In this document: piece after piece, positions 9,075 through 13,457 of the stretch
Layout: each line of letters begins with the position of its first letter
Position numbering within the stretch: the stretch's first letter is position 1
Assembly (NCBI GenBank): GCA_963711565.1
Contig: CAVQEQ010000001.1
Coordinates: 160,001-224,000 of the forward strand
Source of the DNA: an uncultured delta proteobacterium
Lineage (GTDB): Bacteria; Desulfobacterota; Binatia; Binatales; Binataceae
Direction: 5' to 3'
Length of the DNA: 64,000 bases
The notes under the pieces: model-generated
Told to the model about the DNA's origin: nothing
The model's database searches: none
Seen by the model: only the letters and a program-made list of their open reading frames with translations
Position numbers and translations under genes: made by a program

Positions 9075-9279
9075 AGGAATATCCCGAACGTGTCGATTGT
9101 CCGCGGCCTTCAGGCCTGGAGATCCCATCGGTGGGAGTACGCCCACCTCAAACCTCGAGGCTCACTCGAAGTACAAGCACCAATAATATTTCGGGCCATG
9201 TATGTAGTTTGATTCCCGCCCGACATGAGGCAAGACGCGGACAATATCTGGTAGTGTCCTAATTTGGGCATTAATATAC

Positions 9280-9308
9280 TTGACTCACCACGCTAGTTAT
9301 GCGATGAT
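9280..9308 (+). promoter_or_regulatory. Putative sigma70 promoter for the transposase, -35 inside the left IR
   Basis: TTGACT-17 bp-GATGAT with TG extension, 6 nt before the ATG, no SD (leaderless-type). Confidence 0.5.
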
Positions 9309-9314
9309 TCAAGC

Positions 9315-10253
9315 ATGAACGCACCAAGGACACTACAGGAAGCGATCCTCTACTTCTCCGACCCTGATCGATGCCTCGACTTCATGGTCGATATTCGCTG
9401 GCCGCGTGGCGTCATCTGTCCGACGTGCCGGAGCAGCGAAGTCTATTTCCTGAAATCGCGGCGCGTCTGGAAGTGCAAGAACAAGCATCCCAAGCAGCAA
9501 TTCAGCGCCAAGGTAGGGACGGTATTCGAGGATTCGCCTATCGGTCTGGATAAGTGGTTTGCTGCGGTCTGGATGATCGCCAACTGCAAGAACGGCGTTA
9601 GCTCATACGAGATTCATCGGGCGCTGAAAGTGACGCAAAAGACGGCGTGGTTCATGGACCATCGCATCCGGCTCGCGATGCAGGCTGGATCGTTTGAGAA
9701 GGTAGCAGGGGAGTTTGAAGTAGACGAGTCTTTTATCGGCGGCCTCGCCCGCAACATGCACAAGAACAAGAAGGCAAAGATCACAGGCACGGGCGGGGCC
9801 GGAAAAGCAATCGTGATGGGTCTGCTAGATCGTAAGACGAAAAAGATTCGACTCCGGCACGTCGCCAATACGCAACGCGAGACGCTTCAGGGCGTGGTGC
9901 GCGAGTACGTCGAAGGCGGTTCATACGTCTACAGCGATGCTTGGGTCGCCTACAACGGATTGGATCGCGAGTACATTCATCAGGTGATTGACCACGCCGA
10001 AACCTATGTTAAGGGCAACGTCCATACGAACGGCATTGAGAATTTTTGGAGTCTGCTAAAGCGCGGTCTGAAAGGGACCTACATCAGCGTCGAGCCGTTC
10101 CATCTGTTTCGCTATCTCGATGAACAGGCGTTCCGATTCAACGAGCGCAAACAGAATGACGGCGGACGATTCATCACTGCGATGGAAGGCGTCACGGGCA
10201 AGCGTGTCACTTACGAAAAGCTAACTGGAAAAGCAGAAGAAGCGGTCGCCTGA
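9315..10253 (+). CDS. IS1595 family DDE transposase
   Basis: RWPRGVICPTC zinc ribbon, HTH with VTQKTAWFM, EVDES / YSDAW / HTNGIENFWSLLKR catalytic motifs, YLDEQAFRFN. Confidence 0.95.
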   Translation: MNAPRTLQEAILYFSDPDRCLDFMVDIRWPRGVICPTCRSSEVYFLKSRRVWKCKNKHPKQQFSAKVGTVFEDSPIGLDKWFAAVWMIANCKNGVSSYEIHRALKVTQKTAWFMDHRIRLAMQAGSFEKVAGEFEVDESFIGGLARNMHKNKKAKITGTGGAGKAIVMGLLDRKTKKIRLRHVANTQRETLQGVVREYVEGGSYVYSDAWVAYNGLDREYIHQVIDHAETYVKGNVHTNGIENFWSLLKRGLKGTYISVEPFHLFRYLDEQAFRFNERKQNDGGRFITAMEGVTGKRVTYEKLTGKAEEAVA

Positions 10254-10287
10254 AAGAAGCGACAGAAACGGGGAAAGCGCGGGCGAG

Positions 10288-10446
10288 TCAGGTTGCGGGT
10301 TTCTTCTTCTTCAATCGATCAGCACGCCAGCGTGCCTCTTCAATTTCTACTTCCTTTTTCGGCACCGCGACGAGTCCGCGAATGAGAAGTTTGAATCGGT
10401 TGAACGGACTACCTCGTTCCAACTTGGTCTGTTCTCTCGTTTTCAC
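10288..10446 (-). CDS. 52-aa basic protein MKTREQTKLERGSPFNRFKLLIRGLVAVPKKEVEIEEARWRADRLKKKKPAT (below ORF-track cutoff)
   Basis: Read by hand; GTG start overlaps the upstream stop (GTGA); converges on the transposase. Confidence 0.6.
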   Translation of the reverse strand: MKTREQTKLERGSPFNRFKLLIRGLVAVPKKEVEIEEARWRADRLKKKKPAT

Positions 10447-10895
10447 GATTCCCAATCCTGACGATGCCGTTTCATTACGCGATCAACCTTGCCATATGTC
10501 TCTTCCAGCACTTCAAGATGAGCATGCTCAATATCGGAGAGATTGCCCAATTTACTGGACCACTTACCGTCCCGAAGCTGGCGCGCGACGTGGGAAGCGC
10601 CCTCGTTATCTGCATAGATCGCGATTTTCTCAAATCCTACTTCGTATGTACGATCATCGGTTTCTTCATAGCCGTGTCGCCGGAATATTTCTGCCCATTG
10701 GTCCGGCAAATCATCGTCGCCGACTCCAGGCGGCCAATAGTATCCCTCGACTACTGCGCCGGACACCCACTTTCGACCGATATCACCAACCGCCCATGAC
10801 ACGCAATTGTATTTGGGTGTTGCGCAACTTGTGATCGTATAGTCCGACAGCGTCAGACTAGGGAACTCTTCCTGAATATCGTCGTGAGCTTTCAA
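10443..10895 (-). CDS. Putative papain-like Cys/His enzyme (resembles DUF7689 from memory)
   Basis: YNC(31)...YWPPG...EKIAIY...H(102)VARQL...WSSKLG...DIEH; TTGA overlap with the upstream gene. Confidence 0.7.
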   Translation of the reverse strand: MKAHDDIQEEFPSLTLSDYTITSCATPKYNCVSWAVGDIGRKWVSGAVVEGYYWPPGVGDDDLPDQWAEIFRRHGYEETDDRTYEVGFEKIAIYADNEGASHVARQLRDGKWSSKLGNLSDIEHAHLEVLEETYGKVDRVMKRHRQDWES

Positions 10896-11398
10896 GGTAA
10901 AAAGTTATTTGCCTTGCCCCACGCGATCCACGCGTTCACTGCTTCATCAAATGATGCGGCTTTGGGAGCTTGGTCTTTACCTGTTATTGCGGCGAGCGCC
11001 CACATCCAGTCATCTGGTCTCTCAGACATTTCTGTAAGAATCAAAGTTATAGCGGCGCGACCCATGCCAATAATCTGTTGATAGGCGGGATGAGTTACCT
11101 TTCGTCTCAAGACAGAAATGGCTTTTGTTTCTTTGCGCCATTGTTGAGAAAGCCTGCGAAACTTCGATTCTATTGTCTCCGCTGGAGCGAAATGTTCTGG
11201 CAGATAAACAATTGCATAGCCGCGCACATCAGGATGGAATGCACGATAGGAAAAGGCCGCCGCTTGATATCTACAAGAAAGTGGTTCATAAGCTGTCTTA
11301 GAACCTATGACCTCAGCCTCTAACTCCATTGCCTGTGGTGTTTGAATGCACCACTCGCGTTTAAGAAGAGCAAGGCGTTTGACCGTCTCTGGTTCCAT
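10892..11398 (-). CDS. Uncharacterised protein with a helical C-terminal domain (HPAYQQIIGMG...WALAAITG)
   Basis: ATG at 11398, 2 nt after the upstream stop (alternative start 11425). Confidence 0.75.
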   Translation of the reverse strand: MEPETVKRLALLKREWCIQTPQAMELEAEVIGSKTAYEPLSCRYQAAAFSYRAFHPDVRGYAIVYLPEHFAPAETIESKFRRLSQQWRKETKAISVLRRKVTHPAYQQIIGMGRAAITLILTEMSERPDDWMWALAAITGKDQAPKAASFDEAVNAWIAWGKANNFLP

Positions 11399-11400
11399 CT

Positions 11401-12057
11401 TTAGGACAGATCCTTTATGTTCCACCGTTGGAACAGTCGTCGCAACGTAACAGCCTTGTCTTGTGCCCGATTCAATATGTCTTGCAGGGTCGCTAGGTCA
11501 TCGTCATCGAGCGCAACATAAAAGTCTTTGTGCTGGCCATTTTCATGGCTACTTACTTTCAACATATGAAATATGACTGCTCCCATTGGTTCTTCTGAGG
11601 CGTCCGATTTGAAGGCATGACGAACATCCGTGAAAATGCGAGCGCCGCAGAAGACGTGGTCATGGTCGGTTTGAAGGGTAAGAGCCTTTGATTTGACACT
11701 CACTTCCTCCACATTAAGCAAATATCCTAACCTGCGTTTGAAAGCTTCATAGTCTTGTCCAAGGTGCAATGCCGGAATGTCAGTCCGATTCATCGCTTGG
11801 CAGACATCCTCCACAAATTTATCAATCGCAACATCGGCCGACGCGCGAATCAGATAAAGCGCCTTGACCAGTTCCGCGAACTGGCGAGCCTCCTCGTCTG
11901 TGAAAATTCCCTCCTTGGAAAGACGATCCGCTAACCCTGGCGAACGTAGGTCGGCGACTTCGCTGATGACTGAAACAACTCTCTCGACCACGCCTTCGTT
12001 AAGAGTACGTAGGCGCGCCAGCGCCTCGTTATACCGTTCTGGAATTTGTAAGGGCAC
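11401..12057 (-). CDS. Uncharacterised protein with COMM-domain-like architecture
   Basis: 218 aa; helical N-half, then ARIFTDVR / VIFHMLKVS / DFYVALD strands and a long C-terminal amphipathic helix; fold call is inference. Confidence 0.7.
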   Translation of the reverse strand: MPLQIPERYNEALARLRTLNEGVVERVVSVISEVADLRSPGLADRLSKEGIFTDEEARQFAELVKALYLIRASADVAIDKFVEDVCQAMNRTDIPALHLGQDYEAFKRRLGYLLNVEEVSVKSKALTLQTDHDHVFCGARIFTDVRHAFKSDASEEPMGAVIFHMLKVSSHENGQHKDFYVALDDDDLATLQDILNRAQDKAVTLRRLFQRWNIKDLS

Positions 12058-12386
12058 TTTTGTTTTTCTCAGCGGATTATAAATGCGTGGAGTAGTCCGG
12101 CTTTACTTCACCGCCGTCCGGCGGGATATAGGAGTACCATGCAAAAGTCAAGCCCTGCTTCCGCAGGTCCAGAATCGAGTGTTCCACAGCGTTTCACTAT
12201 TTGGAAGGGCCTAGCGGGAATAGGAGGGCGGGCTATTTTCGATCGTTGTTTGATCGCTTATTAGCGCGAGGCGGTTCTGAAAGTAGCGGGGCTTTCTGGA
12301 GCACGCGGCGCGTTGTATAGTATTTACATCATTGGGCCGGAGGTGCAGGTGGATGGATTTCATTCTGCTAGATCACAGTTAAATGA

Positions 12387-12551
12387 ACGGCCTTGGATGT
12401 TGGAGCACCCAAGGCCGTGGGCGGGAAACCGTAAAATTTTTGGCTTGAAAGCGACAGTCCCCGCCGGAGCAGGACCAGCGGTATTGACAATACCCCCGCT
12501 CTAAACCGTTTTCAAGCCTCCCTGTTCGTAGCCGGTTTTCTATGAAAACCG
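12387..12551 (+). ncRNA. Candidate structured RNA or 5' leader inside the IS cargo
   Basis: Stems at 12387-12418, 12421-12432 (GAAA loop), a 12-bp stem 12442-12453/12507-12518 enclosing two hairpins, and 12533-12551. Confidence 0.4.
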
Positions 12552-12572
12552 CGATGGTGAGGTACGCCTAAA

Positions 12573-12821
12573 ATGGCGCTTTACAAATATTCTCAATTTA
12601 TCGTGCAGAGCAACGACGAAGCATTCGATAGGCTTTACGATCCAGGTGCGATTACGCCGCATTCTGGTATCTATAAATGCAACGTCTGTCGATACGAAGT
12701 CGCGTCGATAGAGGGCAGACCGCTGCCGCCTCCAAGCGATTCGAATCATGCAGGGTGGGTTTGTACCCCCGGCAGCGTGAGGTGGCGGCTAGCCGTGTAC
12801 GCCGTCCACAAAAGGGGCTAA
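12573..12821 (+). CDS. Small YjzC-like/protein L-like zinc-ribbon protein
   Basis: PG...PHSGIYKCNVC...LPP...WRL pattern; GAGGT RBS. Confidence 0.75.
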   Translation: MALYKYSQFIVQSNDEAFDRLYDPGAITPHSGIYKCNVCRYEVASIEGRPLPPPSDSNHAGWVCTPGSVRWRLAVYAVHKRG

Positions 12822-13031
12822 AGGCTTCTCGCCAATAGTCAGGGCGGGCAGCACTTCCGGCACCGGCTGGCAGTGCTGCCACGCCAAGCCTGCGATCTGC
12901 GCAAGCGCGGTTGCTACGAATAGCAGCTTCTCTTGCGCAATATTCCGGTTCATAAACTCGATCACTTTCTCAACATCCTTGTCCAGTCGAATTTCCATCA
13001 TCCCATCCTCTTCAAATAAATGGCCTGTCAC
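12789..13031 (-). CDS. Hypothetical 80-aa protein
   Basis: GTG 8 nt downstream of a promoter anchored in the right IR; 33-bp convergent overlap with the previous ORF. Confidence 0.5.
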   Translation of the reverse strand: MTGHLFEEDGMMEIRLDKDVEKVIEFMNRNIAQEKLLFVATALAQIAGLAWQHCQPVPEVLPALTIGEKPLAPFVDGVHG

Positions 13032-13039
13032 GTGCTGGC

Positions 13040-13068
13040 AAAATAGCCCAATCTGTCAGGTGAGTCAA
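13040..13068 (-). promoter_or_regulatory. Putative inward sigma70 promoter, -35 inside the right IR
   Basis: TTGACT-17 bp-TATTTT on the minus strand. Confidence 0.5.
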
Positions 13069-13081
13069 GTATATTAATGCC

Positions 13082-13210
13082 CTAATTTGAAACTCGCTCG
13101 ACCAATTCGCCTGCCGTCCAAATGTGATCGCTGATTCCGTCCGCCATCGCGGGCGTCATGCGCAGCGTCTTGTGAATCCGTACCGGATTGTCATAGTCGA
13201 AATCATGGCG
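13082..13210 (-). pseudogene. C-terminal remnant of an IS1-like transposase
   Basis: Reads ...VRIHKTLRMTPAMADGISDHIWTAGELVERVSN*, matching the RIHxTLRxTPAMxAGxxDHxW tail of these transposases. Confidence 0.75.
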
Positions 13211-13426
13211 CAGAAGAGACGTATGCGCAAAATCGTGAGGGCAACGGTTCGCGTGTGGTCGTTTTACAAATGTGATAAGTGCGGCGGTCGTATCGAAGAA
13301 CGGGAAAGAGGAGAGCGAGCATCGTGGTCAGGGCGGCCAAATTCCGTCCCCATCTACATCTACCGTTGTCTTGATTGTGGGCATACGTTCAAGCAGCAGC
13401 AGATGCTGACGAAATTTTCAAATTAG
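13205..13426 (+). CDS. Small zinc-ribbon protein
   Basis: CDKCGG...YRCLDCGHTF; ATG at 13205 or 13223; stop lies inside the outer right IR. Confidence 0.55.
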   Translation: MAQKRRMRKIVRATVRVWSFYKCDKCGGRIEERERGERASWSGRPNSVPIYIYRCLDCGHTFKQQQMLTKFSN

Positions 13427-13457
13427 GACACTACCTCTCACCCTCAGAGCCTTGTCG

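Follow-up and report, generated by a model that had tools for sequence, protein, structure and literature searches.

The 64,000-nucleotide window analysed here (positions 160,001 to 224,000 of contig CAVQEQ010000001.1, assembly GCA_963711565.1, from an uncultured delta proteobacterium of the Binataceae) contains an IS1595-family insertion sequence with a short run of minus-strand open reading frames (ORFs) among its passengers. The first three encode a COMMD-like protein (gene 1; 218 amino acids, GTG start, 11401-12057), a 168-amino-acid protein (gene 2; ATG start, 10892-11398) and a DUF7689 protein (gene 3; 150 amino acids, TTG start, 10443-10895). We propose, at a probability of about 0.58, that these genes form a mobile, translationally coupled keeper-antitoxin-toxin module resembling the toxin-antitoxin-chaperone (TAC) systems, in which a COMMD ring would take the place of SecB. 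What we claim for the role of COMMD extends no further than the subfamily that our gene 1 profile A3, built from 141 sequences, recovers.

In gene order the three ORFs are joined by a 2-nt gap and a TTGA overlap, and gene 3 shares a GTGA with a fourth, basic ORF of 52 amino acids (gene 4; GTG start, 10288-10446, minus strand), which we place outside the module. Lengths and junctions agree with an earlier interpretation made from the letters alone (the sequence-only reading), which had also remarked on the AT-richness of the ORFs. Indeed, the four-ORF stretch has a G+C content of 0.495, whereas its flanks have 0.605 and 0.638 and the window and genome 0.61; that of the transposase gene is 0.545. 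The TATAAT hexamer noted in the same reading is present on the minus strand at 12076-12081, 18 nt before the start of gene 1, where it is a plausible -10 box for the module by position only: the window holds three copies with 3.9 expected by chance, and no -35 box was scored upstream of gene 1.

Gene 1 encodes a true prokaryotic COMMD-like protein. It has no match among Pfam and NCBIfam models, and 3,313 protein clusters (50% identity) match it. Profile A3 matched PDB 9q6a with E 2.7e-39 over profile positions 3-218. The available sections of Liu et al. 2026 (PMC13392464) describe this structure as an octameric COMMD-like protein from Flavobacteriaceae, with 9q6c and 9q6d as related entries. 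The predicted model of gene 1 (predicted local distance difference test score, pLDDT, 96.5) retrieved 9q6a in Foldseek at E 1e-10, with a template-modelling (TM) score of 0.72-0.75 over 217 columns, followed by human CCC (COMMD) chains. Its secondary structure displays the architecture of the family, a helical HN domain (about residues 1-130) followed by a C-terminal COMM domain (residues 135-211) made of three antiparallel strands and a long helix. Both the profile and the structural match confirm the COMM-like character that had been proposed for gene 1. Prokaryotic COMMD-like proteins occur as homodimers and as rings of 8-10 subunits, according to the same sections of PMC13392464; by analogy, the gene 1 protein would also assemble into rings, and we consider it likely to be a ring-forming keeper or sensor. 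The function of the prokaryotic proteins is called unclear in those sections, where the only gene contexts reported are type VI secretion-like in Myxococcota and DNA-related in other groups. Toxin-antitoxin pairs go unmentioned in the examined sections of PMC13392464, the words 'operon', 'defence/defense' and 'peptidase' do not occur in its main text, and the four supplement files searched contain no relevant term. PMC12962969, in the part available, likewise gives no function for prokaryotic COMMD-like proteins.

Gene 3 matches PF24738 (DUF7689) above the cut-off (E 1e-30), and its predicted model (pLDDT 93.6) identifies it as a papain-fold Cys-His-Asp protein. The list of structural matches is papain-superfamily throughout, albeit weakly so, with an NlpC/P60 protein at Z 6.4 (root-mean-square deviation 3.6, 92 residues aligned) and AvrPphB at Z 5.5 (121 residues). 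Foldseek returned nothing below E 0.06 for the model, Pfam gave no NlpC/P60 match, and a gene 3 profile found no significant match among PDB sequences. Among 115 distinct intact DUF7689 homologues, C31 is retained in 114 and H102 and D121 in all, as are W112, S114, K115, G117, H124 and G135. In the model, C31 opens a helix (31-36), H102 lies on a strand (99-106) and D121 on another (121-124), so that conservation and secondary structure together predict a Cys31-His102-Asp121 triad. A papain-like Cys-His enzyme was what the sequence-only reading had suspected from Y29-N30-C31, H102 and WSSKLG; all of these are present and conserved, and the family match and fold comparisons point the same way. 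The enzyme may be a peptidase or a deamidase. Within the host phylum, 8 of 301 genomes carry DUF7689, and no paper on it, nor any function or substrate, was found in the literature searched, which included few subscription journals.

Gene 2 is composed of a conserved core of about 93 amino acids (10892-11173, minus strand), running to the C-terminus, and a variable N-terminal tail (residues 1-75; 11174-11398, minus strand) with nine aromatic residues. The HPAYQQIIGMG motif, singled out earlier in what was taken for a helical protein, does lie in a conserved helical region, the core, together with WxWAL and W157/W160. No Pfam, NCBIfam, PADLOC or PDB family accounts for this core, and the ESM Atlas offers only 'hypothetical protein'. 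At least 573 DUF7689 loci were confirmed in GTDB genomes, and in 78 of the best 80, which we analysed, the gene-2 core ends directly upstream of DUF7689 and within 60 nt of it. Of the remaining two loci, one is cut off by the end of its contig and the other is a solitary DUF7689 copy without the Asn-Cys motif. DUF7689 is always the last member of the pair, which is the position of known toxins, and it is also the member more often broken: five independent loci have a disrupted DUF7689 next to an intact gene 2, and one the reverse, a weak argument overall. Two small coupled genes with the antitoxin position first, inherited together and scattered sporadically across phyla, make up the layout of a type II pair, and genes 2 and 3 have it. 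The guess that the locus is toxin-antitoxin-like is strengthened by these results; taken for genes 2 and 3 alone we hold it with considerable confidence. The gene-2 core is likely the antitoxin domain and gene 3 likely the toxin.

What stands upstream of the pair varies. In the best 80 DUF7689 loci it was a TIGR04255 gene in 24, a COMMD-like gene in 10, an HN-domain fusion in one, a long N-terminal fusion in seven and a small protein in four; in 32, nothing was recognised. Six of the seven long fusions are restriction-modification-like (four were scanned) and the seventh is probably a spurious frame. The small partners, one of them with a weak DUF3467 match (E 0.09), gave no alignment to the COMM domain. 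As far as gene neighbourhoods can tell, genes 2 and 3 are the fixed core of the locus, and gene 1 occupies an exchangeable slot open to COMMD-like proteins, TIGR04255, small proteins, a restriction-modification fusion or no recognised partner. In the restriction-modification type (L013, L014, L016, L019, L022 and L052; loci are numbered with the prefix L) N6-methylase or specificity subunits carry the gene-2 core as a C-terminal fusion, and DUF7689 comes next. These subunits resemble MADS2/MADS5 below the cut-off and mostly lie within IS1595 elements, and their architecture suggests a toxin guarding a restriction-modification enzyme. TIGR04255 genes (L211-L227 and 24 of L013-L092) head similar pairs, with PIN, ART-like, DUF7689 and other members, and the gene after TIGR04255 carries a tail of about 45-50 amino acids in the 13 of the 17 loci L211-L227 that could be mapped by profile. 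TIGR04255 has no profile similarity to COMMD, its profile has no significant match in PDB, the ESM Atlas gives the family name only, and the same literature yielded no paper on it; it is possibly SecB-like and may be another keeper family.

Viewed from gene 1, the pair is exchangeable as well. A COMMD-anchored set comprised the best 80 of 543 metagenome loci, 64 of which have at least 600 nt downstream; gene 2 and DUF7689 follow the COMMD gene in 42 of these 64, and in 31 of 49 after removal of duplicates. Representatives of other pairs in the same position include PemK/MazF (L114, L153), PIN (L131), HEPN (L168, below the cut-off), an aspartyl protease with DUF5678 (L112, L139) and an ART-like family with weak PADLOC PDC-M32 matches. 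To cut selection bias, we turned to three other phyla, those of the Nostoc, Acidobacteriota and Saprospiraceae anchors, sampled 251, 351 and 351 of their genomes independently, and dropped the two anchor loci. A toxin-type pair partner stood behind the COMMD-profile gene, or was fused to it, in 25 of 25 sampled loci, and the second gene was visible in 23. The partners, several of which were assigned by sight without a Pfam match, were DUF7689 in ten loci (five with full COMMD, five with HN only, fused to the gene-2 core), DUF4325 with a PIN-like protein in two, HEPN-type proteins in five, DUF5678 with an aspartyl protease in three and ART-like proteins in five. Homologues of genes 1-3 co-occur across phyla, in support of the sequence-only reading.

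Some features of these sibling loci deserve mention in their own right. The ART-like family (L116, L124, L126, L156, L165, L174, L178, L246, L249, L251 and L254) consists of proteins of about 130 amino acids with RVH...MSTDW...HT motifs; Pfam gave no match to it, and its profile had no significant match in PDB. The label (ADP-ribosyltransferase- or RES-like), like the label 'MNT-like' used alongside it, is presumed from motifs. More distant COMMD-like genes are followed by a Fic-domain gene (L179, on a viral contig) or by a 301-amino-acid protein of no recognised kind and a metallophosphoesterase (L096).

The tail of gene 2 changes with the upstream partner. After removal of duplicates and of six truncated, frameshifted or uncertain loci, its median length was 66 amino acids behind COMMD (at least 40 in 44 of 45) and 47.5 behind TIGR04255 (at least 40 in 25 of 26), as compared with 20 in loci lacking a recognised partner (at least 40 in 9 of 30), where lengths are upper bounds counted from the first start codon. 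Tryptophan makes up 3.7% of tails behind COMMD and 1.5% of those in partner-less loci. The corresponding p values (4e-9 and 2e-5) are overstated because the loci are related and not independent. A natural swap was also found: the COMMD proteins of L147 and L124/L128/L174 are closely related and their tails homologous (z 27, 21 and 16 against shuffles), and downstream of the shared tail, in frame, comes the gene-2 core in L147 (whose contig stops before DUF7689) and an unrelated domain followed by an ART-like gene in the other three. In six loci (L087, L237-240 and L248) the HN domain runs straight into the gene-2 core as one fusion protein, and the COMM domain has disappeared together with the long tail. 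We consider the tail likely to be an addiction element that binds COMMD.

This interpretation draws on two precedents. In TAC systems, as stated in the available part of 10.1101/2024.02.24.581848, aromatic residues of a disordered C-terminal antitoxin tail bind a SecB-like chaperone tetramer, and phage proteins compete for the chaperone such that the toxin is released (the same source and the accessible text of PMC11618068). Human COMMD rings, according to the sections available of PMC10187114, bind unstructured linkers of CCDC22 and CCDC93. Because chaperones grip tails in the former and rings grip linkers in the latter, the most likely reading of the locus is a mirror image of TAC. The gene 1 ring would bind the gene-2 tail, which would hold the antitoxin in a stable, folded state; competition for the ring would come from a phage protein or an unfolded protein; the released antitoxin would aggregate or be degraded; and gene 3, a putative thiol enzyme now free, would cleave or deamidate an essential protein of host or phage, halting infection. 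The whole cycle is modelled on that of TAC systems.

Several observations weigh against this proposal. No recognised partner stands upstream in the 32 of 80 genome loci counted above, and nine of 30 partner-less gene-2 copies may nevertheless possess tails of 40 or more amino acids. Outside the L147 clade, the highest z for tail similarity (best of 46) in 16 further non-DUF7689 loci was 1.1-8.3, within 1-5 in all but one of them (8.3) and mostly noise, and part of the co-travel of tail and COMMD could be explained by linkage, since the tail adjoins the COMMD gene. The COMMD tree was a quick search whose starred branches force only two changes of the DUF7689 label, and the number of swaps is accordingly not fixed. 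In one locus (L015) DUF7689 is intact and the adjacent gene 2 frameshifted, a divergent 321-amino-acid DUF7689 match (L007) has no gene-2 match, and the fold matches of gene 3 are modest, Z 6.4 being the best. The module is rare in viral contigs, with two loci each for genes 1 and 3, and searches of plasmid records with genes 1 and 3, and of phage records with gene 1, found no match. Finally, PADLOC-DB 2.0 (2023 library) had nothing for genes 2-4 and only partial matches (E 0.005-0.02) for gene 1.

The first of these points, together with the poor conservation of tails across clades and the adjacency of tail and COMMD gene, would suit a plain type II pair, in which the COMMD-like gene is a co-transcribed accessory, either a scaffold or an independent defence factor, and the tail a linker or decayed coding remnant. 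We consider this unlikely, although it is the best placed of the alternatives. Against it, the tails are in frame, long and rich in tryptophan specifically behind COMMD, of a different and tight length behind TIGR04255, and lost jointly with the COMM domain in the HN fusions; and none of the 25 sampled COMMD loci was without such a partner.

Gene 3 might instead be a regulatory protease that, in response to a signal, cuts either gene 1 or the tail of gene 2 and frees the gene-2 core as effector or regulator. Papain-fold enzymes are usually peptidases, and an aspartyl protease occupies the equivalent position in other COMMD loci; however, so do MazF, PIN, HEPN and Fic toxins, in many copies of gene 2 hardly any tail is there to be cut, and DUF7689 is the member of the pair that breaks more often. 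The chances of this explanation seem to us slight. Equally improbable in our estimate is that the proposed biochemistry holds but serves only addiction or stress, stabilising the insertion sequence or a genomic island with no part in anti-phage defence. That would be in keeping with a passenger of an IS1595 element polymorphic in its population, with an IS1595 transposase within 6 kb in 10 of the 80 genome loci, and with the failure of PADLOC to match; yet most loci lie away from any IS1595, the restriction-modification fusions and the weak PDC-M32 matches of sibling pairs point to defence, and the characterised TACs are anti-phage in the sections available of PMC11618068. Least credible is an obligate, non-toxic two-subunit enzyme, for example a protein-modifying enzyme or cell-wall hydrolase targeted by exchangeable N-terminal modules, for which the near-obligate pairing and the best fold matches, NlpC/P60 cell-wall peptidases, might speak, but the 41 aligned homologues display no signal-peptide-like N-terminus by eye, and the pair swaps with unrelated toxin pairs behind a single COMMD clade.

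The proposed keeper-antitoxin-toxin module rides on an intact mobile element. The IS1595-family element with its passengers spans 9267-13081 (3815 bp); it is bounded by perfect 23-bp inverted repeats (9267-9289 and 13059-13081) and flanked by an 8-bp target duplication, CTAATTTG, at 9259-9266 and 13082-13089. Its transposase (312 amino acids, 9315-10253, plus strand) matches PF12762 (E 4e-37), PF12760 and NF033547 (E 3e-52). A DDE_Tnp_IS1595 transposase, terminal inverted repeats and an 8-bp target duplication, the marks of the family, are all present, and the intact IS1595 ends reported from the sequence are real. One contig of a soil DNA run (X1) has a junction that omits 3823 nt, that is 3815 plus 8, and corresponds to an empty site; this evidence is a single contig whose shorter side measures 21 nt, and X1 is possibly the source sample. 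Read depth in X1 within the element is about half of that immediately to its right, which, with the empty-site contig, fits a population in which the IS1595 insertion is both present and absent. In an RNA run (X7), two identical contigs cover 11271-11494 and 11536-11697; they represent a small share of words, from contigs only, and we do not count them as evidence of expression.

The proposal that all four ORFs form one system was rejected, for gene 4 goes with the IS1595 transposase. Within the host's order, 32 of 121 genomes gave a match to a gene-4 profile, which was built from seven copies in DUF7689 loci and is so biased toward co-occurrence with DUF7689. In 26 of the 29 loci fetched, the window's own excluded, an IS1595 transposase lies 41-139 nt from the gene-4 homologue, and DUF7689 is present in five of the 29. 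Conversely, when DUF7689 loci with 300 nt or more of downstream sequence are considered (118, counting duplicates), gene 4 is present in 11, whereas both gene 4 and a transposase are absent from 101. By this distribution gene 4 is a component of IS1595, and the overlap between genes 3 and 4 appears to mark the point where cargo was inserted against gene 4. No Pfam, NCBIfam or PADLOC family matches it. In the host's family (L181-L210) its relatives are basic ORFs of 50-70 amino acids in either orientation relative to the transposase, and they may constitute an undescribed IS1595 accessory protein. Relatives of the element carry alternative cargo in the equivalent slot (L184, L187, L190, L192, L207, L181, L183, L189 and L191): Panacea antitoxins with small partners in five loci, one partner having a ParE match, and elsewhere AAA_21+DUF3226, proteasome-subunit-like proteins, an N6-methylase and a SacI-like nuclease.

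Other features of the carrier were noted in passing. Two further passenger ORFs lie at 12573-12821 (plus strand; 82 amino acids, containing Cys and His, with no significant Pfam match) and at 12789-13031 (minus strand; 80 amino acids, weak short matches only); the former may be YjzC-like. The IS1595 element sits in the left inverted repeat of a non-autonomous outer element of about 360 bp with GGTAGTGTCCTAATTTG ends (9250-9266 and 13090-13435), which also has a zinc-ribbon ORF of 100 amino acids (13124-13426, plus strand). Overlapped by that ORF is a minus-strand fragment, presumably the C-terminus of an IS1-family transposase. The host genome has a second IS1595 (G000 C3, about 1015500-1018900) with 69% transposase identity, adjoining a gene that by sight resembles a DNA adenine methylase. 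The genome, 95% complete, gave no match to PF02556 (SecB), a result that we do not use as support.

Neither the module nor any combination of COMMD-like proteins with toxin-antitoxin pairs is described in the literature searched, and this, together with the PADLOC search, is in line with the initial impression that the locus belongs to no named system. The proposal would give the COMMD-like proteins, described in 2026 and of unclear function in the available sections of PMC13392464, a specific and cheaply testable role as keepers or sensors of exchangeable toxin-antitoxin pairs. If it is right, the TAC principle would be independent of SecB, bacterial conflict systems would become a plausible source of a eukaryotic trafficking scaffold, and DUF7689, the gene-2 core and TIGR04255, three families so far unannotated, would gain functions together. 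We entertain the boldest form of the idea more tentatively: that COMMD rings of this subfamily are phage-sensing keepers of toxin-antitoxin pairs and a second, SecB-independent origin of the TAC principle; that they would grip the aromatic, disordered antitoxin tail as CCDC22/CCDC93 linkers are gripped, Commander peptide-binding thereby descending from bacterial immunity; that DUF7689 would represent a novel toxin of the papain fold, paired with an equally novel family of antitoxins; and that TIGR04255 would be a third type of keeper.

Compared with known systems, gene 1 resembles the proteins of PMC13392464 in its HN and COMM fold, as the profile E-value and TM scores given above indicate. 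It differs in scale, about 3,300 clusters matching gene 1 here as against 250 bacterial proteins in the sections of that study available to us, and in context, toxin-type pairs lying downstream here and no such pairs appearing in those sections. DUF7689 is like the papain-like superfamily, of the NlpC/P60 and YopT/AvrPphB types, in having a Cys at a helix start, a His on a strand and an invariant Asp (Z 5-6.4), and unlike the solved enzymes in its low identity (at most about 15%) and its own invariant W-S/T-S-K-L/M-G-x3-D-I-E-H segment. The carrier shares transposase domains, terminal inverted repeats, the 8-bp duplication and cargo between its ends with other IS1595 passenger elements; unlike them, it has a slot for exchangeable toxin-antitoxin or defence cargo beside a small accessory ORF of no family.

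The closest systems are the TACs, CmdTAC (PMC11618068) and HigBAC and MqsRAC (10.1101/2024.02.24.581848), as far as the accessible parts of those papers describe them. The likeness extends to three coupled genes, an exchangeable pair, a mobile location, a third protein, by analogy oligomeric here, that co-occurs with the extension, and the extension itself, long, variable and rich in aromatics on the gene in the antitoxin position when the third gene is present (median 66 versus 20 amino acids). In contrast to TAC, the third protein has the COMMD fold and no Pfam or NCBIfam SecB match, the extension is N-terminal here and C-terminal there, the order is keeper-antitoxin-toxin, and the toxin position is held by a papain-fold DUF7689 protein behind an antitoxin-position core of no listed family.

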